From Gemmatimonadota bacterium (GTDB lineage: Bacteria; Gemmatimonadota; Gemmatimonadetes; Palauibacterales; Palauibacteraceae): DNA of 64,000 nucleotides. This document shows, one piece after another, positions 13,605-28,155 of the stretch; within the stretch, counting starts at the first letter, position 1; each line of letters begins with the position of its first letter. Under the pieces are notes generated by a model. It worked only from the letters and a program-made list of their open reading frames with translations, did not search any database and was not told the DNA's origin. The DNA is taken from contig OY762926.1 of assembly GCA_963666735.1 (NCBI GenBank), positions 2,016,001 through 2,080,000 on the forward strand, given 5' to 3'. The position numbers and the translations under genes are program-made.

Positions 13605-13877
13605 ATGAGGATCCGGCACAAGGGACTCCGGGCGCTCCATGAGCGGGATGACCGGGCTCGGCTTCCGGCGCACCTGGTGCCGCGGCTTCGGCGAATTCTG
13701 TTCCGGCTGCAAGAAGCGACGCATCCCGGTAGCGCAGACGCTCCGGGTTTTCGGCTGCACCCGTTGAAGGGAGGTCGAGCGGGCCAATGGAGCGTGCGCG
13801 TGTCCGGCAATTGGCGCGTCGTGTTCCGCTTCGAGGACGGCGAGGTCGTGGACGTGGACCTGGTGGATTACCACTGA
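13605..13877 (+). CDS. higB: HigB/RelE-family toxin (plasmid maintenance system killer type)
   Basis: RHKGLR.L, PGFRLHPLKG...GQWSVRVSGNWRVVFRF.....DVDLVDYH. Confidence 0.92.
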   Translation: MRIRHKGLRALHERDDRARLPAHLVPRLRRILFRLQEATHPGSADAPGFRLHPLKGGRAGQWSVRVSGNWRVVFRFEDGEVVDVDLVDYH

Positions 13878-13893
13878 GGGGGGAGGAAATGCG

Positions 13894-14208
13894 ATGAACG
13901 ACAGCGGCAAGCGCGGAGGTCCGATGCTGAATCCGCCGCACCTGGGCGAACTTGTCCGCGAAGGCATGGACGAGGTCGGCTGGAACGTGACTCGGACGGC
14001 GGCTCATCTGGGGTGCGAGCGCGGGACTTTATCGCGACTGCTGAACGGGAGGGCCGGCGTGTCGGCGAACATGGCGCTTGCCTTGGAGGCCATCGGCTGG
14101 GGCACGGCGGATCACTGGATGCGAATGCAGGCGAGCTATGAGCTTGCACAGGCACGAAGGGCACATGACTGGCGGGAGGACACGCGGGCGCACGAAGCCG
14201 TCCCATAG
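13894..14208 (+). CDS. higA: HigA-family antitoxin (Xre HTH)
   Basis: NPPHLGELVRE, HTH TLSRLLNGRAGVS..MAL.L, WMRMQASYEL; alternative ATG at 13924. Confidence 0.92.
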   Translation: MNDSGKRGGPMLNPPHLGELVREGMDEVGWNVTRTAAHLGCERGTLSRLLNGRAGVSANMALALEAIGWGTADHWMRMQASYELAQARRAHDWREDTRAHEAVP

Positions 14209-18157: not shown

Positions 18158-19144
18158 TTGCTAACCGTTCTTGAGATTTGTGCGGGGGGAGGGGGGCAGA
18201 CCTTGGGTCTCGAGGATGCTGGGTTCGAGGCTGCGGGGCTCGTCGAGAACGACCGTCACGCTTGTGCCACGCTCCGCTTTAACCGGCCGCGTTGGCGCGT
18301 GATCGAAGGTGATGTCCGGGAGCTGGATTCGGCTGAATTCCGGGGCGTAGATCTGTTTGCGGGCGGGGTACCCTGTCCGCCGTTTTCCGTAGCGGGAAAA
18401 CAACTCGGGAGTGACGACGAGCGTGATCTGTTCCCGGCCGCCCTCCGCCTGATCGAAGACATCGAGCCGCGCGCCGTCCTGCTTGAGAATGTCCCTGGCT
18501 TGGCCACGAGGCGGTTTTCCGCCTACCGCCGACGGCTCGCCGCGCGTCTGACCGCACTCGGCTACTGGCTTGACTGGAGGGTGTTGAACGCGAGCGAGTT
18601 CGGCGTTTCGCAGCTGCGCCCCCGGTTCATTCTTGTCGCCGTAAGGAGAAACCTCTCGCCGTATTTCGCTTGGCCTCTGCCTTCCGGCCCCGGCCACTCC
18701 GTCGGCGAACTGCTTGCGGACCTGATGGGCGCGGGCGGCTGGCCGGGTGCGGCTGATTGGGCGGCGGCGGCGAGCAACATCGCACCCACGCTTGTTGGAG
18801 GCTCCAAGAAGCACGGCGGGGCTGACTTGGGACCTACGCGGGCCAGGGCCGCCTGGCAGAAACTCGGTGTCAACGGGCTCTCTCTTGCCGACGCACCTCC
18901 CGGACCCGGCTTCCCGGCGGACTCGATGCCGCGTCTGACCTTGCGCATGACGGCACGCATCCAGGGATTTCCCGATTCATGGCAGTTCCAGGGAGGAAAG
19001 ACCGCGGCATACCGCCAGGTAGGGAACGCCCTGCCGCCGCCGGTTGCAGAGGCCGTGGGCACTTCCCTTCGCAGGGCGCTTATGGAGAAGACGCCGACCT
19101 ACGATGTAGACGAGCAGTTGCCGTTGCGGGCTCAAACCGTATGA
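18158..19144 (+). CDS. C5 DNA cytosine methyltransferase, M.NaeI/M.NgoMIV-like (predicted GCCGGC)
   Basis: EICAGGGGQ, GGVPCPPFS.AG, ENVPG, QLRPR, TRD PTLVGGSKKHGGADLGPTRA, YRQVGNA. Confidence 0.92.
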   Translation: MLTVLEICAGGGGQTLGLEDAGFEAAGLVENDRHACATLRFNRPRWRVIEGDVRELDSAEFRGVDLFAGGVPCPPFSVAGKQLGSDDERDLFPAALRLIEDIEPRAVLLENVPGLATRRFSAYRRRLAARLTALGYWLDWRVLNASEFGVSQLRPRFILVAVRRNLSPYFAWPLPSGPGHSVGELLADLMGAGGWPGAADWAAAASNIAPTLVGGSKKHGGADLGPTRARAAWQKLGVNGLSLADAPPGPGFPADSMPRLTLRMTARIQGFPDSWQFQGGKTAAYRQVGNALPPPVAEAVGTSLRRALMEKTPTYDVDEQLPLRAQTV

Positions 19145-19203
19145 CTGAAGAGATCCTGCTGGCGGCTCGCCGGGAACTGCTTCCGCTCGATCTCGTCGTC
19201 TGA
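19141..19203 (+). pseudogene. 20-codon scar of an NgoMIV-family restriction endonuclease (fused N- and C-termini)
   Basis: ATGA-coupled to the methylase; MTEEILLAARRE-LLPLDLVV*; tail resembles the LPLDL(A/V)V end recalled for the NgoMIV family. Confidence 0.65.
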
Positions 19204-19215
19204 GCGCATCCCGCG

Positions 19216-19707
19216 GTGGATTACAAGCCCAAGTCCGCGGATGAGATCCGGCGCAACATGTCAGCCATCCGGAGCACGGGAGGCAAGACGGAGGTTGCCC
19301 TCCGCTCCATGCTTCACCGCCGCGGCCTCAGGTTTCGCAAGAACTATGCGAAGCTCCCGGGGAGACCCGATATCGTCTTCGTCCGTGCCCGTGTCGTAGT
19401 GTTCATCGATGGCGACTATTGGCACGCGCGGGTTCTACGGGAGCGCGGTCCCGAGGCCCTCGAACAGCGCATGAAGACCGCAAACCGCGCATACTGGATG
19501 ACAAAGTTCACGAAGCGTGTGAAACGCGACGACCATGTGACGGCCACGCTTGAGGAAGACGGCTGGACGGTGGTCAGGCTCTGGGAATCCGATGTCCGAG
19601 CCAACTTGGACGAGGCGGCCAGGGCAATCGAAAATTCCGTAAGGTTGGGTTTGGGACACGGCCGGGAGCGTCAACGGAGAGCGGGTGCAGCGTGCAGGTC
19701 CACCTGA
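19216..19707 (+). CDS. vsr: Very short patch repair endonuclease
   Basis: RRNMSAIRS...KTE..LR..LH..GLRFRKN...LPGRPDIV, FIDGDYWH, GWTVVRLWE. Confidence 0.93.
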   Translation: MDYKPKSADEIRRNMSAIRSTGGKTEVALRSMLHRRGLRFRKNYAKLPGRPDIVFVRARVVVFIDGDYWHARVLRERGPEALEQRMKTANRAYWMTKFTKRVKRDDHVTATLEEDGWTVVRLWESDVRANLDEAARAIENSVRLGLGHGRERQRRAGAACRST

Positions 19708-20573
19708 TCGACGGCACCTACGAGTTGTTCCGGCACTTCTACGGAGCGCCCTCGGCGAAGAACGCCGGGGGTCACGAGGTCGGGGCGGCGCGCGGCGTCG
19801 TGGCTTCGATGCTCGGCCTCCTCGAGGGCGGGGCCACCCACATCGCCATCGCCACCGACCGCGTCATCGAGTCCTTCCGCAACGAGCTGTGGCCCGGCTA
19901 CAAGGACGGCTCCGGCATCGATCCGGCGCTCCACTCGCAATTCCCCCTCGTCGAGGAGGCGCTCGCCTCGGCGGGGTTCGTCGTGTGGCCGATGGTGCGG
20001 CACGAAGCGGACGACGGGATGGCTGCCGGCGCCGCGATGGCCGCCGCCGACCCGCGCGTGGAGCGCGTCTTCATCTGCACGCCGGACAAGGATCTCGCCC
20101 AGTGTGTGGAAGGCGACCGCATCGTGCAGTTCGACCGCCGGCAGCGGATCGTGCGCGACGAGGCCGGCGTCATCGAGAAGTTCGGGGTCCCTCCCGCCGC
20201 GATCCCCGACTGGTTGGCCCTGGTGGGAGACTCCGCGGACGGATTCCCCGGCATCCGCGGCTTCGGCGCCAAGACCGCCGCCGCGGTGCTCGCCCGCTAC
20301 GGCCGCATCGAGGACATCCCCTCGGACGGACGAGATTGGGATGTCTCCGTGCGCGGCCCCGAACGCCTCGCGCAGACGCTGCGCAGCGGGCTGGACGACG
20401 CGCTCCTCTTCCGCCGCCTCGCCACGCTGGTCCGCGAAGCGCCCGTCTCAGCGAGCGTCGACGACCTCGAGTGGACGGGCCCCCGGGACGATTTCGACCT
20501 CGTCGCTACGATACTCGACGCCCCTGACCTGCTTCCCCGTATCCGGCGACTCGCGGAAGACCGGGGCCATTGA
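19692..20573 (+). CDS. Stand-alone 5'-3' exonuclease / flap endonuclease
   Basis: HLIDGTYELFR, FRNELWPGYK, EADD, TPDKD, LVGDSADG.PGI.GFGAKTA (H3TH). Confidence 0.92.
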   Translation: MQVHLIDGTYELFRHFYGAPSAKNAGGHEVGAARGVVASMLGLLEGGATHIAIATDRVIESFRNELWPGYKDGSGIDPALHSQFPLVEEALASAGFVVWPMVRHEADDGMAAGAAMAAADPRVERVFICTPDKDLAQCVEGDRIVQFDRRQRIVRDEAGVIEKFGVPPAAIPDWLALVGDSADGFPGIRGFGAKTAAAVLARYGRIEDIPSDGRDWDVSVRGPERLAQTLRSGLDDALLFRRLATLVREAPVSASVDDLEWTGPRDDFDLVATILDAPDLLPRIRRLAEDRGH

Positions 20574-20644
20574 ACGGGCCGGGCTCTCGCCGATGAGGCC
20601 ACCTCGCTAGGCAACGCCACTCTCCGGACCTTTCGCATCTCACA

Positions 20645-20719
20645 ATCATATGATATCCTTGGCGGCGTGAACCAGCACACGAACTCCGTTTCACAAGCAC
20701 TAGTGCGATCATATGATCG
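20645..20719. promoter_or_regulatory. Twin palindromic operator upstream of the TA-ATPase operon
   Basis: ATCATATGAT at 20645-54 and CGATCATATGATCG at 20706-19; also GCACTAGTGC at 20697-706; AT-rich relative to flanks. Confidence 0.6.
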
Positions 20720-20728
20720 ACATCTCGC

Positions 20729-21115
20729 TTGAGATCCGCAGAAGATCGCTCGAAACAGGACAAAGCGGACCAGTATCCACAGATACGCGGACAGCCGATC
20801 GCCCTGGTCCGGAACGGCAGGCGGAAAGCTGCCTTTACTCACGAGCGGCCGGCCGATGTTCGTTTTCGCGAGGTACTTCGTCCCGAGTCTGGATTTCCGC
20901 TGACCGAGCGTGGCATGTGGGAAGAGATCGTACGTCTTCTGGATTCGGGAGTGCGGTTGACCTGTCTCCCGCTGCGCCAGCCCCCCGGCGAGAAGGCTTG
21001 GGTGTTTCGAGCGAGACTCGCCCCCGGTTTTCCGGTCATCTACGTAAAGCTGCAGATGCTGGGCGGTACCGTACTCGTACGCAGCTTCCACCCCAGTGAG
21101 CGTGGCCATGAATAA
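20729..21115 (+). CDS. MqsR-like (RelE-fold) toxin; start uncertain
   Basis: C-terminal IYVKLQ.....VLVRSFH resembles MqsR-like RNases; lies immediately before a Zn-ribbon/HTH gene. Confidence 0.6.
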   Translation: MRSAEDRSKQDKADQYPQIRGQPIALVRNGRRKAAFTHERPADVRFREVLRPESGFPLTERGMWEEIVRLLDSGVRLTCLPLRQPPGEKAWVFRARLAPGFPVIYVKLQMLGGTVLVRSFHPSERGHE

Positions 21116-21532
21116 GATCGCCTCGAAACCAACCGTCCTCGGCCGGATCGTCGGTCCCGAGACCTGCGAGATGTGCGGAAGTCCTGGGTTGAAGACCGAA
21201 CTTGTGCGAAATCCATTCACCTATGGGGTTGGGTCCGACGCCGTGGAACTCAGCGCTGACATCCCCGTCCACACGTGCGAGACCTGCGTGGTCTCGTTTA
21301 CGGATGAAGCGGCGGAGAACATTCAACACGACGCCGTGTGCCGACACCTTGGTGTCCTCACGCCGGACGAGATCCATGCCCTCCGCAGGAGCCACGACAT
21401 GACTCGCGCGGCCTTCGCCCGGCTGACCGGCTTCGGCGAAGCAACTGGGCTTACCCCGTTTTAGTGGACAGGTGAAAGTGGTGGTTTCCTCCATTCTCGC
21501 CACCTCGCGGGAGAGGGCCGCGGCCCGGGGGG

Positions 21533-22400
21533 TCACGCCGCCTCTCCTTTCTCGCGCGCCTCGAAGCTGGCGGGCGACTCGTAGCCGAGGCTCGAGTGCC
21601 GCCGGCGCGGGTTGTACCAGCCCTCGATGAACCGGAACACCCCCCGGCGGGCCTCGCCGGGCGTCCGGAACGAGCGCCGCCAGATCAGTTCGCACTCCAG
21701 CGTGGCGAAGAACGACTCGCACATGGCGTTGTCGTAAGCGTCGCCCACCGAGCCCATCGAGGGCCTGACCCCGGCCCTCCGGCAGCGCCCGCCGAAGGCG
21801 TAGGACGTGTACTGGCTGCCTTGGTCGCTGTGGTGGATCACCCCGTCGGGGCGCCGCTGCGCCAGCGCCATGTCGAAGGCATCCAGCACCAGGGACGTCC
21901 TCAGGTGCGTCGCCATCGACCAGCCCACGATGCGGCGGCTCCAGGCGTCGAGCACGACGGCCAGATAGAGGAAGCCCGCCCAGGTCGGCACGTACGTGAT
22001 GTCGGCCACCCAGAGTTCGTCGGGTCCGGAGGCCGAGAAGTCTCGGTCCACGAGATCCGGCGCGGGCCTGGACTTCGCGGCCCGCTTCGTCGTACTGCCC
22101 TTGCGGCGCCGGCTCACCCCTTCGATCTCCGCCGCCCGCATCAGCCGCGCCACCCGGCCCACACCCGCCTCGCGGCCCCGCGCCTTGAGTTCCGCATGGA
22201 CCCGCGGCGCCCCGTACGTCCCCCCGCTCATGGCGTGGATCTCGACGATCTCCGCACTGAGCGCCTCGTTCTCCCGCGCCCGCCGAGACGGCTCCCGCGT
22301 CCGCCACGCATAGTACCCGCTCGGGGAGAGACCCAGCAGGCGGCACATCACGCGCACGGGATACATGGCCTGGTGATCGCTCACGAACCGGAACCCCCCC
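21533..22400 (-). CDS. IS3 OrfB, DDE transposase catalytic part (5' boundary at frameshift window, approximate)
   Basis: TYGAPRV, WVADITY, HHSDQGSQY, YDNAMCESFF, WYN..RRHSSLGY. Confidence 0.92.
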
Positions 22401-22689
22401 GGGGGATCGATCCGCTCTCCTTGGCGAACCAGGCCGTGGCTTTTGCCAATATGTCGCGCTCGATCTTCACCCGGCGAAGCTCGCGCTTCAGTTCCCGGAC
22501 TTCCTTGCGCTCGACCGTCGTCAGACCGTCGGTGCGACGCCCCTCGTCCAGGTCGGCCCGCTCCACCCAGCGCCGGATCGCCGTCGCCGAGGGCTCGAAC
22601 TCGCGAGCCAGCCGGTCCGCGCTCCGTCCCGCACGGACCAGTTCCACCATCCGCGCCTTGTACTCCGGCGCGTATCTCCGTCCCGACAT
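22381..22689 (-). CDS. IS3 OrfA (HTH plus coiled coil)
   Basis: MSGRRYAPEYKARMVELV, LAREF...AIRRWV, ELKRELRRVKIERDILAKA; GGAGG SD. Confidence 0.9.
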   Translation of the reverse strand: MSGRRYAPEYKARMVELVRAGRSADRLAREFEPSATAIRRWVERADLDEGRRTDGLTTVERKEVRELKRELRRVKIERDILAKATAWFAKESGSIPRGGSGS

Positions 22690-22993
22690 GTGACACCTCC
22701 TCGTTGTGACCAACGCTCAAAGGTGTCCACCAAATCGGGGTAACTCCAGCAACTCTTGCACGGTGGGAGCGTCGCGACGTGATCCAGAACACTTCTTGCG
22801 ACCGGTATCTGCGGCTGCTGCTGTATGGTGCGAACGTCGACCGCCTTCGGGCGCTGGTCTCGGATACCTCACCTGAGGGGCCGGGTGTGGTAGGCACGCG
22901 CGCGACAGTGCGGTTCGTCCACCTTTCCGTTGAACGCCAGCGATCCTTCCGGCGCGACACCGCCGGATGGCGCCCTCGGGGCGTGGCCGCCTG

Positions 22994-24886
22994 ATGTACG
23001 TCGCCACGTTCTACTCCTACAAGGGCGGTGTTGGCCGAACGCTAGCCCTGCTCAATGTAGCGTACGAGATGGCCGATACCGGGCTCAAGGTGCTCGTCGT
23101 CGATTTCGATCTTGAGGCACCTGCCATCCGCGCCGACCGCTGGAAGTCGCGTGGCACCGGGATTACTGCCGCAACTGCCGCCAGTTCCGACCACGCCGGG
23201 ATGGTGGAGTACGTAGGCACATATCTCGATACGGGGCAGGCTCCACTTGTGGCCGACTACGTCGTCGACGCCACGCCCGACGAGTGTGCGGGCGAAATCG
23301 GACTGATGCCGGCTGGGCGGATTAACGACAGTTACGGTGATCGCCTGAACCAGATCGACTGGAACGCCCTCTACGCAGACCACGATGGGTATCTGATGTT
23401 CGAGGACCTGCGGGCGCAGTGGGAGACTCTCGGCTTCCATTACGTCCTCGTGGATTCCCGCACCGGCTTTACCGATGTCGGAGGCATATGCACCCGTCAC
23501 TTACCAGACGCCGTCGTCACGATGTTTCGCCCAGACGACCAGAGTCTGCGGGGTATCAGTGGTGTGGTTCAGTCCATCCGCAACGAGAAAACAACACCGC
23601 GACGGAAGCATGCAATCAACTTGCATTTTGTCATGGCTTCGATCCCCGCCGCCGACGACGAGGATGGGATCCTAGCGGAACATCGTAGGGCCTTCGCTGA
23701 ACACCTCTCCATCCCACGCGGCCACCTTCTCGAGGTCAAGCAATACCAAAGCATGGACCTCTTGACGCAGCCCATCTACACTCGCACGCGGCCGCGCACA
23801 TCCCTGGCTCGCTCTTATCAGGCGCTTGCAAAGGGGATTCGTGCTCTCAACGTGCTCGACCGCGACGGAGTGCGGGATTATCTGCGGCACGCTGGGAAAC
23901 GCCGGCGTTTCCCCAAAGACGACGACTACCTCAAGCGGATCCGGCAAGAGTACGATCAAGACGCGAGCGTGCTGGGGGAGCTTGCCGCGGCCCAATACTA
24001 CCGAGGCTTCATCATCGACGCGGTGGATCTCCTCGAGGCAATGGCGGAGCTGGGGCCTCTGAGTACGAGTCACCAGATGACGCTGGCCGAAGCTCGTCAC
24101 GTCACAGATGATCACGAGGGTGCTGCCAAGGCACTCAAGACGTTCTTTCAGAGCTCGGTTGACGACTCGGATTCCACCGATCCGGAGACCACCTACCGAC
24201 TCGTCCTCCGCGGTCTCAACATGCTGGAAGGACGGGGCGAGGACCGCGCTTCCTACGTTGACGGAAGTCCGGTCATTCGCCGGCTGTCGTCGCCTGACCA
24301 GGCAGCCGTGGCCGGGACTCTAGATCTGTCACCATCCGAGGGGCGCGTCGCAGCCGCAATCCTCGAGAGTGTCCTGCGCGACCCGGAGCTATCCTCAGAG
24401 GAAGGGGAGCGGTGGAAATGGGCGCTAGCGTTCGCTCTTATGACCACGGGCCGCTTTGCGGATGCCAGGGTCTACTTCGTAGAGGCCTCTGAGCAGCCGC
24501 CAAGTCCGTCGCTAGTTCCCTCGATCTTCAACTTGGCGATGGCGATTTGGGCGGATACCGGTACACCAGATCGGGAAGCGTTCAGACGGGTGTTGGAGGC
24601 GGTCGAGGCCGAAGAGGACACATCGACCTGGCTGAACGACAACGCGAACGCCCTTCAGGCGCTTGCGGTCGCGGCGTGGTTCGCAGGAAGGCGGGATGAA
24701 GCGCACGCACACCTGAAGGCGGCAGAAGACGCTATCAAGAGCCGCAAGACGATGATCAGCTGCTGGTCCTACACTCGGGTTTCACGAGACGAATTCCGGG
24801 CCCATTGTGGTGAGATACGTACCTTGCTATCCGGGTCAGACATCGAGCCTGCCTTCATGCGGAGGAATGCCCCTCCAGCACCGTGA
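22994..24886 (+). CDS. KGGVGR-motif ParA/MinD-like ATPase with C-terminal TPR-like helical repeats
   Basis: TFYSYKGGVGRT, VLVVDFDLEAP, YVLVDSRTG..D..GICT..LPD; Ala-rich helical repeats; TGATG coupling to the antitoxin stop. Confidence 0.85.
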   Translation: MYVATFYSYKGGVGRTLALLNVAYEMADTGLKVLVVDFDLEAPAIRADRWKSRGTGITAATAASSDHAGMVEYVGTYLDTGQAPLVADYVVDATPDECAGEIGLMPAGRINDSYGDRLNQIDWNALYADHDGYLMFEDLRAQWETLGFHYVLVDSRTGFTDVGGICTRHLPDAVVTMFRPDDQSLRGISGVVQSIRNEKTTPRRKHAINLHFVMASIPAADDEDGILAEHRRAFAEHLSIPRGHLLEVKQYQSMDLLTQPIYTRTRPRTSLARSYQALAKGIRALNVLDRDGVRDYLRHAGKRRRFPKDDDYLKRIRQEYDQDASVLGELAAAQYYRGFIIDAVDLLEAMAELGPLSTSHQMTLAEARHVTDDHEGAAKALKTFFQSSVDDSDSTDPETTYRLVLRGLNMLEGRGEDRASYVDGSPVIRRLSSPDQAAVAGTLDLSPSEGRVAAAILESVLRDPELSSEEGERWKWALAFALMTTGRFADARVYFVEASEQPPSPSLVPSIFNLAMAIWADTGTPDREAFRRVLEAVEAEEDTSTWLNDNANALQALAVAAWFAGRRDEAHAHLKAAEDAIKSRKTMISCWSYTRVSRDEFRAHCGEIRTLLSGSDIEPAFMRRNAPPAP

Positions 24887-24933
24887 CTGGCATTGTAGGC
24901 GATGGATTCGGGCACCCCTTGCCTTCATCAGAG

Positions 24934-26463
24934 TCAGTCGCCGATGGGGGGTACGGCCTCCATCAGCAGGGCGATCGCGGCGTTCAGGTTCTCCCCGCCT
25001 GGGCCGGCGCCCGTGTACTTTCCGAGGCGGGTGATGACGAGGCCGCGCGCCGGGATGAACACCGTGTACTGGCCGCCGGCGCCCGCGAAGGCGCCGTAGT
25101 CGTCGTCGATCGGGAACCCGAGGTCCTTCCACACGAAACCGCCGCCGTAGACGGGACGTCCGTCGGCGATCCAGGCCGGGGCGACCTCCATCGCGTAGTC
25201 CACGTAGCCCTCCGGGAGGATGCGCTCGCCCTCCCACACGCCGTCCTGCAGGTAGAGGTTGCCGAGCCGCGCCCAGTCGCGCGCGGAGCCGAACTCGTAG
25301 CCCTGCGTGAGGAAGTTTCCGTTCGGGTCCGTCTCCATGACGAAGTTCCGGATCCCGAGCTTGTCGAACAGGTTCCGCTGCGGGAAGGCGTGATAGTCCT
25401 CGCCGCGTCCCTCCACGCCGAGGCGGACCAGGTAGTTGGTGAGCGCCGGGTCGGTGTTCCTGTATCGTCCCACCGTGTTCGGCTCCCACTGCTGCGGGCG
25501 GGTGGCCGCCCACTCGAAGGCGTTCTCGCCCGTATAGAGGTAGAGGTGGTCGGGATACCCCATCTCCTCCGTGTATCCGGGGTCCTGCGGCGCGACGATC
25601 CGGATGCCGCTCGACATGCGCATGATGTCGCCGATGCGGATGTCCCTTCGGTCATCGCCCTGCCATTCCGGGAGCGGGGCGGGCTGCCACAGCTCGTACA
25701 CGCCCTGCTGGATGAGGACGGCCATCAGCGTGCCGGTGAGCGACTTCCCCTTGGACCAGCTCTCCAGCGGCGAGTGCATGTCGACATCCGGGCCGTAGCC
25801 CTCGCCGATGATCCGGCCCTTGTAGGTGACGACAAAGCCCAGCGTCTTCCCCTCCTGGTCCATCGCGATCTCGACCGCCTGCCCGACCTTGTCCATGTCG
25901 ATCTCGGGCGGATACGGCTCGTCGGGGAGCACGTCCCCCATGGGCCACGGCGTGGTGGCCGGATCCGGGGTGTTGGGCTCGACCACGGACGGGGTGAAGT
26001 AGATCGAGTCCCGGCCCAGCGGATGCGTGATGCAGCCCTGGCTGCCGTACAGCTTGGCCGTGCGCGTGATCCCCGAGCCGAGGGTCAGGCTCACGGTCTG
26101 CGCCTCCATGTCGACGACCGTGTCGACGACCGCGCCCCGGTGCTGGAAGGGCGCTGTGAAGCCGCCCACGTTGGCGGCCGCGTCGCGCCAGTCGAGGCCC
26201 GTGATGAACGTCCCGGAGCAGAGCGTCTTCGCGAACCCCGCCGTGTGGTGCACGATCGGCTCGCCCGGCGGCGGATCCCATTCGGTGGGCAACTCGAGAG
26301 ATTCCCCGCGCGCGATCACCCGGTCCATAACGGATTCGCCGGAGGCTTCCTCCCCGCCGGCCTCGCCGCCGTCGCCCGGCGCACAAGCCGGAAATCCAAG
26401 GAGAGAAAGCGAAAACGCGACACACAGGTGCGCCAGGGAAGCTCGATCACGGATGCAACGCAT
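24934..26463 (-). CDS. Serine hydrolase, beta-lactamase class C-like, probable lipoprotein
   Basis: SxxK in SWSKGKS, YxN in GRYRN, ARDWARLG.LYLQDG.W.GERIL, GAGGQY; signal ending PAC. Confidence 0.88.
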   Translation of the reverse strand: MRCIRDRASLAHLCVAFSLSLLGFPACAPGDGGEAGGEEASGESVMDRVIARGESLELPTEWDPPPGEPIVHHTAGFAKTLCSGTFITGLDWRDAAANVGGFTAPFQHRGAVVDTVVDMEAQTVSLTLGSGITRTAKLYGSQGCITHPLGRDSIYFTPSVVEPNTPDPATTPWPMGDVLPDEPYPPEIDMDKVGQAVEIAMDQEGKTLGFVVTYKGRIIGEGYGPDVDMHSPLESWSKGKSLTGTLMAVLIQQGVYELWQPAPLPEWQGDDRRDIRIGDIMRMSSGIRIVAPQDPGYTEEMGYPDHLYLYTGENAFEWAATRPQQWEPNTVGRYRNTDPALTNYLVRLGVEGRGEDYHAFPQRNLFDKLGIRNFVMETDPNGNFLTQGYEFGSARDWARLGNLYLQDGVWEGERILPEGYVDYAMEVAPAWIADGRPVYGGGFVWKDLGFPIDDDYGAFAGAGGQYTVFIPARGLVITRLGKYTGAGPGGENLNAAIALLMEAVPPIGD

Positions 26464-26597: not shown

Positions 26598-28076
26598 TCA
26601 GCCCCCGAGCAGCCACGCGAGCAACGCCGTGGGAACGGCGGACAGCTCGGGATCGTCCAGGTCCAGCGCCCGCCTCGTCGCGACGAGGCCGCGCCAGGGA
26701 GATGCCCTCAGGGTGGGGGCAGCCCGCTTCCACCGGTCCCCGTCCACGTACTTCGACTCGATCGCGAGCCCCCCGAACCCGGGCCCGGTGAAGTCGATCT
26801 CCTTGCGGCTGGGCGTCCGGTGATGGAGAACGGCATCGAAGTTCGGGTACCCTCCCGGATCCCTGCGCAGGAAGGAGCGGACCAGGGTCATCCCCAGCTG
26901 CTGCTCGGAGAGGAGCGATAGGTCGACCGGTCTCCGGGGACGCGCCGACAGCACCGCGAAGATGGGGTCGGTAAAGTACGTCTTTTCCTGTGACCGGAGG
27001 GCCGGCGCGAGGCGGTGTTCGCGGTAGCAGGGCCACACGACGAAGCTTTCACGGAGCGCATCGATCCGGCGGCGGACGGTGTTGGCCGACGTGCCGGTGT
27101 CGGAGGCAATATCGCTGCGGTTGGTCGGCGACCCGATGCCGGTCGCCAGTCGGCTCACGAAGGCATCGGTGTGCGCGCGCGACCAGGCGGACTGCCCGAA
27201 AGCCTCTCCCCGGATCACGTCGAGCAGGCTCTCCTTGAGGGCGCGGGCGATCGGCCCGCCGCCTGTTTCGGGGCTCGGGGCGTCGGTCGCGGCGTGTGCC
27301 GCCACGGCCTGTGGAAACCCGCCGACCGCGAGGTACGTCTCCCATCCGTGTACGAGATCCGGCAGCCACGGCGCCAGCCTCCTCGCGGCTTCGTCCAGAA
27401 CCTCGGGCGTCAAGCCGGCCACCGGCAGAGGCGCTCCACCGGCGGGCGGGAGCCTCCCCCTTTCTCCTTCCGCGTCATCCTGCACCCGCAGGAAGCTCCG
27501 GAAGGACATGGGCAGGAGCACGCGGTCCGAGTCCACCGCGCCGCCGCGCCGCCCGGCGAAGGCCTTGACCGCTTCCGTCAGGTCGCGCGCGGAGGAGCCG
27601 GTGAGGACCACAGTATCCAGTCCGAAGCGCAGATCGTTGTCACGCAGCCACTTGATCGCCGGCGGCCATCCGTCCGGGATGGCCGTGATCTCGTCGAAGA
27701 ACCAGAAGCGGCGCCCCGAGGGGGGAGTGATCGAGGCTGCGGCGTCGACGACTCGTCTGAGGTCTGCGGCGGCGAATTCGTCGGCCGCAACGTGGATAAT
27801 GCGGCGGGGATCCTCGCCGCGCTCGATGAGACTCTGGACCGTCTTCTTGATCTCGACCGACTTGCCGACCCGCCGCGGCCCGCGAAGCACGTAGAGGCCG
27901 CCCGGAACGAGCGCCTCAAGCACGCCGGCGGTGTATTCGAACGGAGCCTCCCGGGCCCGGCGCAGGTCCGGGTCGCGCCGAACCCATCCGTCGGGGTCCG
28001 TCCACCAGCCGATACGGGTCAGGATGTCGCGCAGTTCAGCTGTGCTGTGCAGGATCGCCCCCGGAGTGACGCCCAA
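26598..28076 (-). CDS. AAA_14 ATPase with C-terminal DUF4143 (PD-(D/E)xK-like) domain; start uncertain
   Basis: GPRRVGKS, FFDEI, LTGSS, AGRRG, YL.VGGFP, KTYFTDP, EIDF...IESK. Confidence 0.85.
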   Translation of the reverse strand: MGVTPGAILHSTAELRDILTRIGWWTDPDGWVRRDPDLRRAREAPFEYTAGVLEALVPGGLYVLRGPRRVGKSVEIKKTVQSLIERGEDPRRIIHVAADEFAAADLRRVVDAAASITPPSGRRFWFFDEITAIPDGWPPAIKWLRDNDLRFGLDTVVLTGSSARDLTEAVKAFAGRRGGAVDSDRVLLPMSFRSFLRVQDDAEGERGRLPPAGGAPLPVAGLTPEVLDEAARRLAPWLPDLVHGWETYLAVGGFPQAVAAHAATDAPSPETGGGPIARALKESLLDVIRGEAFGQSAWSRAHTDAFVSRLATGIGSPTNRSDIASDTGTSANTVRRRIDALRESFVVWPCYREHRLAPALRSQEKTYFTDPIFAVLSARPRRPVDLSLLSEQQLGMTLVRSFLRRDPGGYPNFDAVLHHRTPSRKEIDFTGPGFGGLAIESKYVDGDRWKRAAPTLRASPWRGLVATRRALDLDDPELSAVPTALLAWLLGG

Positions 28077-28127
28077 CCGTCGGATGGAGGATATTGTGCA
28101 CCAAATCCGCCATCGCCTGGAAGAAAA

Positions 28128-28155
28128 AGTATACATAATCTCCCATGGATGCCAA
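28128..28155 (-). promoter_or_regulatory. Sigma70-like promoter for the AAA/DUF4143 gene
   Basis: Minus strand TTGGCA, 16-bp spacer, TATACT in an AT-rich patch. Confidence 0.5.

Follow-up and report, generated by a model that had tools for sequence, protein, structure and literature searches.

An MqsR-MqsA-type TA-ParA module from a Gemmatimonadota bacterium, with a conserved antitoxin tail predicted to dock on its KGGVGR ATPase

Type II toxin–antitoxin (TA) operons can carry a third gene. In the toxin–antitoxin–chaperone (TAC) systems, among them MqsRAC, HigBAC, CmdTAC and the TAC of M. tuberculosis, the third gene encodes a SecB-like protein and the antitoxin bears a C-terminal extension with aromatic motifs, through which it comes to rely on that protein (PMC5105189). 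According to the accessible part of a second study, the AA or VA at the C-terminus of these antitoxins is a ClpXP degron, and TAC systems defend against phage (10.1101/2024.02.24.581848). In an October 2026 preprint, Li, Burroughs and Aravind (bioRxiv 10.64898/2026.10.19.760177) predict a ‘TA-ParA’ class in which a type II TA pair is joined by a third, ParA-TPR gene; the accessible text assigns the ParA to a ConB2 clade with an Arg in Walker A, names an MqsR-MqsA subtype and proposes a switch role. Here we analyse such a module in a Gemmatimonadota bacterium of the Palauibacteraceae (assembly GCA_963666735.1), within a 64,000-nucleotide stretch of contig OY762926.1 (positions 2,016,001 to 2,080,000, forward strand) that is called the window throughout. 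Its three genes encode an MqsR-fold toxin, an MqsA-like antitoxin and an ATPase with TPR-like repeats.

By the description available in the preprint, the module belongs to the MqsR-MqsA subtype of TA-ParA, a class that had already been predicted. A type II TA pair is followed by a ParA protein fused to a C-terminal TPR region, and Walker A reads KGGVGRT, with the ConB2 Arg in place of the second Lys. One difference lies in the PG motif downstream of sensor-1, which is PA in the window and in relative G013, a variant of this subclade in a family where PG is found in 57 of the 72 full-length orthologues. The original prediction, made from the sequence letters, knew this combination under no name. 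Because the preprint describes a TA pair with ParA-TPR and an MqsR-MqsA subtype, the module is not a new system and the triplet matches a described one. Nor is it a TAC system, because its third gene is not SecB. It shares with TAC the order of toxin, antitoxin and third gene, together with a C-terminal antitoxin extension of ~40 residues that has aromatic motifs and often ends in AA or VA; recognition of this extension by the third protein is here a prediction. It differs from TAC in that a 630-aa ParA-TPR protein stands in the place of SecB, and in that the tail is conserved across phyla, whereas the ChAD regions of TAC antitoxins are described as lacking significant similarity (PMC5105189).

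Compared with E. coli MqsR-MqsA, the toxin fold (Z 10.1) and the zinc-finger/helix-turn-helix (HTH) antitoxin (E 7e-9 to 3gn5) are shared, whereas the toxin family falls outside PF15723 and the antitoxin is ~47 positions longer. The operator of E. coli MqsR-MqsA also differs from that of the module. NF047398 (KGGVGR-motif variant AAA ATPase; 142 bits, cut-off 90) and the PADLOC profile PDC-M28B (E 1e-21) both match the ParA domain, and both cover the NTPase domain only. The PADLOC search that the original prediction called for thus returns a partial match for the ATPase and none for the toxin or the antitoxin pieces; neither the full-length match nor the partner gene of PDC-M28 is present, the alignment pairing aa 4-233 with profile positions 131-355 of 438.

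The accessible text of 10.64898/2026.10.19.760177 contains no antitoxin tail, degron, docking site or operator, on which its figures and supplements may bear, and its main text has 0 matches to ‘addiction’ and 0 to ‘operator’. The accessible text of PMC11980606 mentions neither ParA nor TPR, and that of 10.1101/2024.01.29.577857 does not mention M28. In the literature, no experimental test of TA-ParA was found.

A conserved triplet of toxin, antitoxin and ATPase

The protein-coding parts of the module are the following.

20729..21115, + strand: toxin of the MqsR fold (BECR), 128 aa, TTG start, identified by fold match, with a private Leu-to-Pro change at residue 23
21108..21445, + strand: antitoxin 5′ piece, with a CxxC-CxxC zinc finger and the first HTH helices (TIGR03830, E 2e-8)
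22754..22994, + strand: antitoxin 3′ piece, with the HTH recognition helix and a tail of ~45 aa, aligning with 72 family tails
22994..24886, + strand: ATPase of 630 aa (NF047398), with a KGGVGR ParA/MinD-like NTPase (aa 1-~285) and TPR-like repeats (aa ~290-612)

The antitoxin is interrupted by an IS3-family insertion sequence (IS). Once this is removed, three overlapping, co-oriented genes lie behind twin palindromes in a block of lower GC, much as originally described. Toxin and antitoxin genes share 8 nt, where the stop of the former meets the ATG of the latter, and the antitoxin TGA and ATPase ATG have 1 nt in common. GC is 0.60-0.68 across the three genes against 0.69 for the window, and GC at third codon positions (GC3) is 0.64-0.75 against 0.84-0.93 in seven neighbouring core genes.

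The toxin model (predicted local distance difference test, pLDDT, 89) finds MqsR (3hi2) as its best fold match, with Z 10.1 and a root-mean-square deviation of 2.8 over 90 aligned positions, and the next match reaches only Z 5.1. Foldseek likewise ranks MqsR first, at a weak E 0.012. No match to the toxin is found in Pfam, NCBIfam, PADLOC or the sequences of solved structures, and the PF15723 (MqsR) sequence model recognises 0 of 60 toxin-family members at E 0.1. An Atlas cluster, 17% of whose members belong to PF15723, has a score of 0.92 in the toxin comparison. The ‘MqsR-like’ identity first proposed is thus upheld by the modelled fold and not by sequence. The catalytic pair of MqsR is Lys56/Tyr81; in the window's toxin family, conserved residues (Y105, K107, S119, F120, H121) are placed on the C-terminal strands. 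With neither Pfam nor NCBIfam offering a model for the toxin, and with the gene left without annotation in 4 of 4 plasmid records, such operons are filed as two-gene loci.

Members of the ATPase family are proteins of 600-630 aa, with 596 representatives under 1e-30, and KGGVGR[TS] is kept in 69 of 72 orthologues. The model of the window protein (pLDDT 93.5) has fold matches to Soj/MinD and to TPR. In its C-terminal half there is a TPR-like helical repeat, and no effector domain can be recognised there, which agrees with the first description of this gene. The two halves evolve at different rates, the mean top-residue frequency being 0.41 in the TPR half and 0.66 in the ParA domain.

Synteny was scored at the best 80 of 592 confirmed ATPase loci. 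The antitoxin is found at 79 of these and directly upstream of the ATPase at 76, and a toxin of the window's family at 62; the antitoxin genes were first found by their zinc-finger pattern and their profile was built from the same loci. Starting from the toxin, 68 of 80 metagenome loci are informative, the other 12 being truncated at a contig end; the ATPase is present at 58 of these 68 and absent from 10. All 8 toxin places outside the window's own in a 401-genome phylum sample hold the three genes (some proteins repeat ATPase-anchored loci), as do 4 of 4 plasmid toxin matches. Intact operons include those at L002 (genome G013) and L017 and a Rhizobium plasmid copy, L181. Nine phyla are named in the tree, and the closest named relatives among the matches are Gemmatimonadota, Ca. 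Palauibacter. These counts apply to the full-length ATPase family; more distant KGGVGR proteins (L088, L089) are without the pair. Judged by synteny, the triplet is one conserved tripartite system with the ATPase in its third slot, as the original prediction held, and ATPase homologues are anything but rare neighbours of the TA pair. Among three close copies dN/dS is 0.12-0.28 for all genes, a substitution pattern by which all module genes are under long-term purifying selection.

That the ATPase merely travels with an ordinary MqsRA pair, with no functional coupling, is a very improbable reading. The 10 of 68 informative toxin loci without the ATPase would fit it; the fixed gene order across at least nine phyla, maintained even when the toxin slot holds other open reading frame (ORF) families, speaks against it, as do a tail that occurs only with the ATPase and a co-fold that passes its mark (both detailed below).

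The toxin slot itself varies. At 12 of the 18 loci without this toxin (among the best 80 of 592), it holds other ORFs of 115-154 aa. These include at least two other small ORF families (L037, L038, L059, L067, L075-L082), next to which antitoxin and ATPase are kept; one family ends in H-x-H-N-T-G-x-P-P-L-P. None of the NCBIfam toxin models recognises any of twelve toxin-slot ORFs taken from loci of Planctomycetota, Verrucomicrobiota and others. We regard them as candidate new toxin families, for which the label RNase would be a guess.

Annotated phages yield no ATPase match, and viral contigs yield none to the toxin profile. Four of six ATPase-bearing viral loci have the antitoxin; a scan of viral contigs for the antitoxin gave mostly unrelated HTH matches.

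The antitoxin tail and its predicted docking on the ParA domain

The explanation that we favour, by a modest lean, is that this is a TA-ParA module run on chaperone-addiction logic, with an NTPase in SecB's place. By analogy, the module probably works like TAC. The evidence centres on the antitoxin C-terminus.

The two antitoxin pieces share one frame and, translated separately, add up arithmetically to 192 aa (112 aa, one junction codon and 79 aa). Four Cys are invariant in 61 antitoxin-family members, which also have the HTH, and 58 of the 61 match PF15731. Against the TIGR03830 cut-off of 61.8, the antitoxin of locus L017 scores 66.4 (above) and that of L002 48.5 (below), the window gene being split. 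Since E. coli MqsA spans only positions 17-138 of the 186-position antitoxin profile, the tail amounts to ~47 profile positions, which bears out the ~45 aa beyond the HTH in the first reading of the rebuilt gene. The tail consensus is F-R-x-L, about ten residues, then F-x-L-R-x-A-A. The window tail (22857-22991) ends in ...GVAA and aligns as a divergent version.

Tail and ATPase occur together. Counted from the HTH ‘xWE’ motif, the length has a median of 74 residues in 46 distinct ATPase-linked antitoxins and ranges over 42-60 in 7 distinct ATPase-less ones (toxin-anchored loci; L170 and L180, with no toxin match, are excluded). A tail profile built from genome-anchored loci and scored on these other loci exceeds 7 bits in 37 of 46 ATPase-linked antitoxins and in 0 of 7 ATPase-less ones. 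Of 72 tails, 38 have Ala as the last residue (32 close with AA or VA), compared with 4 of 72 ATPases.

Co-folding predicts a direct contact. When the L017 ATPase is folded together with the C-terminal 34 residues of the L017 antitoxin the score is 0.71, and the best of three controls reaches 0.00; roughly 116 of 157 solved pairs reach the mark used, as do 2 of 215 mismatched ones, computed with own alignments. At least 87% of contacts are shared between the L017 runs, with a partner pLDDT of at least 71. Both conserved tail motifs are named as contacts of the ParA domain and none of the TPRs; the last two tail alanines are not among the named contacts. It is a helical insert (L017 aa 121-132), and not the P-loop, that receives the most confident contacts. 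Near-invariant contact residues in L017 (W113, Y117, G122, E127, D128, Q132, D152, G155, R159) are all present in the window ATPase, on which the mapped docking patch comprises aa 81-86, 123-144, 161-169 and 194-203. Matches between solved structures and the ATPase family are confined to the surroundings of Walker A and to generic TPRs, and none covers the docking region. The tail is thus predicted to dock on the ParA domain and not on the TPRs. Together with the co-occurrence, the model lends support to the earlier suggestion that the ATPase engages the antitoxin tail.

Where the tail is predicted to bind matters for another reading, in which the basic tail is an ATPase-activating peptide that keeps ParA off, and the freed ParA-TPR protein is itself the effector. 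The ParB or MinE arms that stimulate ParA/MinD would be the parallel. Rich in Arg, the tail is predicted to sit on the NTPase domain beside the helix that follows Walker B and away from the TPRs, which would suit such a peptide, and the accessible preprint text argues that ParA can be a multimerising effector in other systems (10.64898/2026.10.19.760177). The preference of the most confident contacts for the insert over the P-loop does not suit it, and an RNase toxin is kept almost everywhere, so that a dedicated effector is already present. We consider this reading distinctly improbable.

The switch model put forward in the preprint, with the tail as a handle, deserves more weight, though we still hold it unlikely. 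In it the TA pair is stable by itself, and sensing by the TPRs turns on ParA, which pulls the antitoxin off the toxin (10.64898/2026.10.19.760177, from its accessible text); here ParA would do so by gripping the tail. It accounts for the same synteny and the same predicted interface as addiction does, and for tailed antitoxins beside early-broken ATPase frames. If loss of the ATPase were harmless, however, tail-bearing orphans should be common, and the motif is retained by none of the 7 distinct antitoxins that have no ATPase; Ala-rich ends also suit a degron better than a handle.

Several points weigh against the addiction explanation and the defensive role attached to it. The co-fold models a relative's pair (L017, ATPase 36% identical), not the window's divergent tail. 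Nine of 46 ATPase-linked tails score below 7 bits, the L113 tail is short, and 40 of 72 tails lack an AA or VA end. The 7 ATPase-less antitoxins form three groups on two quick trees; because a single origin is not rejected (p-AU 0.31), the independent tail losses number one to three, and the joint loss may be one event. Tailed antitoxins stand beside early-broken ATPase frames at L071, L072, L099-L101, L151 and L164; these frames may be assembly errors, and if real they count against strict addiction. The preprint, in its accessible text, calls the TA-ParA theme entirely distinct from TAC (10.64898/2026.10.19.760177). As for defence, no fourth gene is conserved across module loci, and in a Pfam test of the flanks (115 picked ORFs from 70 of 80 genome loci, 82 matched) about 12 were judged defence-like, without a control, the rest being mostly housekeeping.

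Two further forms of the ATPase were noted. At L023, L027, L042, L056, L059 and L066 the frames stop at 284-434 aa next to tailed antitoxins, so that the ParA domain is retained and most TPRs are missing; they are truncations or assembly errors. L075-L083, mostly Verrucomicrobiota, have a shorter subtype (550-570 aa) with the tail pattern F-P-x-L...N-P-A.

Under the addiction explanation, the cycle would run as follows. The antitoxin would repress the operon at the twin palindromes, and its zinc finger would bind the MqsR-type RNase, as in E. coli MqsRA. The tail would dock through its two aromatic motifs on the conserved helical insert of the ParA domain, and docking would stabilise the antitoxin by shielding this tail, whose end is often an AA/VA degron of the ClpXP type. 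The variable TPR half may sense a signal, most likely an invader protein, which would change the nucleotide state of ParA or compete the tail off. The released antitoxin would then be degraded, and the RNase would stop translation.

Operator, insertion site and state of the window copy

The remaining features of the locus are listed here.

20574..24933, no strand: whole insert, between a 5′-3′ exonuclease gene and a convergent serine hydrolase gene
20645..20654, no strand: palindromic operator 1, ATCATATGAT, a predicted site for the antitoxin HTH, which would bind here
20690..20719, + strand: promoter-like site TTCACA-16-TATGAT, overlapped by palindromic operator 2 (20706-20719)
21446..22748, - strand: IS3-family element with orfA/orfB, 1303 bp (NF033516, E 5e-102 for orfB)

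The two copies of ATCATATGAT, at 20645 and 20708, are the sole ones in the 3.98-Mb genome. The second is part of a palindrome of 14 bp, which takes in the -10 hexamer of the promoter-like site. This site is the single one in 20500-25100, where 0.9 would be expected by chance, and is weak taken alone. The motif TCAWWTGA occurs 5′ of 51 of 62 toxin genes, compared with 10 of 1278 downstream control windows, and the twin arrangement recurs in the intact congener locus L002.

The low-GC block is an insert, since the ends of the exonuclease and serine hydrolase genes nearly meet in congeners (at most 80 nt apart in 22 of 29 loci). Among 40 relatives, searched by ATPase, only G013 has an intact triplet, with the same twin operator at a different genomic site. 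Another congener, G051 (L199), has a decayed remnant at the same exonuclease–hydrolase site: the toxin is deleted from the operator to its 3′ end, the antitoxin is frameshifted and the ATPase is replaced by other DNA. The same junction holds other inserts of 170-1020 nt in L200, L201, L203, L210 and L190, and these cases together suggest an insertion hot spot.

Such patchiness bears on the role of the module. It might be a selfish or stress-responsive addiction cassette with the wiring set out above and no anti-phage role, a reading that concerns role and overlaps the favoured explanation. Its mobile distribution (1 of 40 relatives by ATPase, 8 of 401 genomes by toxin), GC below that of the flanks in 69 of 71 loci, mostly housekeeping neighbours and independent decay at the same site in G051 all accord with this. 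A 630-aa protein with a fast-evolving TPR half (0.41 vs 0.66) would, however, be costly for simple addiction, and TAC systems of like design protect against phage in the accessible account of 10.1101/2024.02.24.581848. We take the purely selfish role to be possible but doubtful.

The IS element has every mark of the IS3 family: an orfA/orfB transposase, terminal inverted repeats (21 of 25 matching, TG...CA ends) and a short target duplication, GCAAC (5 bp), at 21441-21445 and 22749-22753. Because the 8 near-full copies in the genome are 99.8-100% identical, the insertion is recent. The duplication is 5 bp at the module's copy, 3 bp at five others and absent at one. Contigs of two of four public runs from other studies (X8, X9) join the IS flanks across a 1308-base skip and thus represent IS-free alleles; in X1 and X5 both sides end inside the IS.

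The IS removes the recognition helix and tail from the antitoxin. The 5′ ORF reads into the element and stops at 21464, leaving the zinc finger in a 118-aa product; in the accessible account of PMC9636575, MqsA residues 1-76 suffice for MqsR binding. Pro23 of the toxin is found in 0 of 59 homologues, and the close copies L002 and L004 have ATG where the window toxin has TTG, 11 nt past the -10 hexamer. In the ATPase, His149 replaces the first Walker B Asp, which is D in 96% of the family alignment. Because of the IS3 split and these private changes at conserved sites in toxin (Pro23, TTG) and ATPase (His149), the window copy is read as disabled, which we consider very probable; the original prediction had neither the private changes nor the likely loss of activity. 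That the TTG start arose as compensation for the IS was considered and is not supported: in run X8, with its IS-free joint, only the window's own letter is seen at 20729, on separate contigs and at low depth. The TTG start seems to be older than the insertion.

Beyond the insert, a C5 DNA methylase and Vsr endonuclease pair, poor in GC3, lies on the opposite side of the exonuclease gene (window 18158-19707). Because most congener loci join 18003 directly to 19660, this pair is a second insert, and the exonuclease gene stands between two variable slots. The window also contains a separate HigB-HigA pair (13605-14208) and, near the module, an AAA_14/DUF4143 ATPase (26598-28136, - strand). Elsewhere in the genome assembly, nine tRNA genes form a dense array (G000 C1 2294005-2294905), with four more at 2289347-2289790.

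Meaning for TA-ParA systems

The TA-ParA class of 10.64898/2026.10.19.760177 is only weeks old, and its accessible text states no route from ParA to the toxin. A specific and testable coupling mechanism is proposed here from the tail, the patch on which it is predicted to dock, and the relatives that lack both tail and ATPase. The tail also links TA-ParA to TAC, two themes that the preprint, in the text available, keeps separate. What is new here is this mechanism and an unannotated toxin family, the window copy itself being a decaying example. Tentatively, and with somewhat less confidence than in the chaperone-addiction logic as such, we propose that TA-ParA systems may be ‘ATPase-addicted’ TA modules. 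The helical insert in a KGGVGR ParA domain would hold a conserved, degron-bearing tail, and an NTPase switch with a TPR phage sensor would have taken on SecB's job by convergence. The tail and ParA would then form a portable control unit onto which several unrecognised RNase toxin families would have been swapped.

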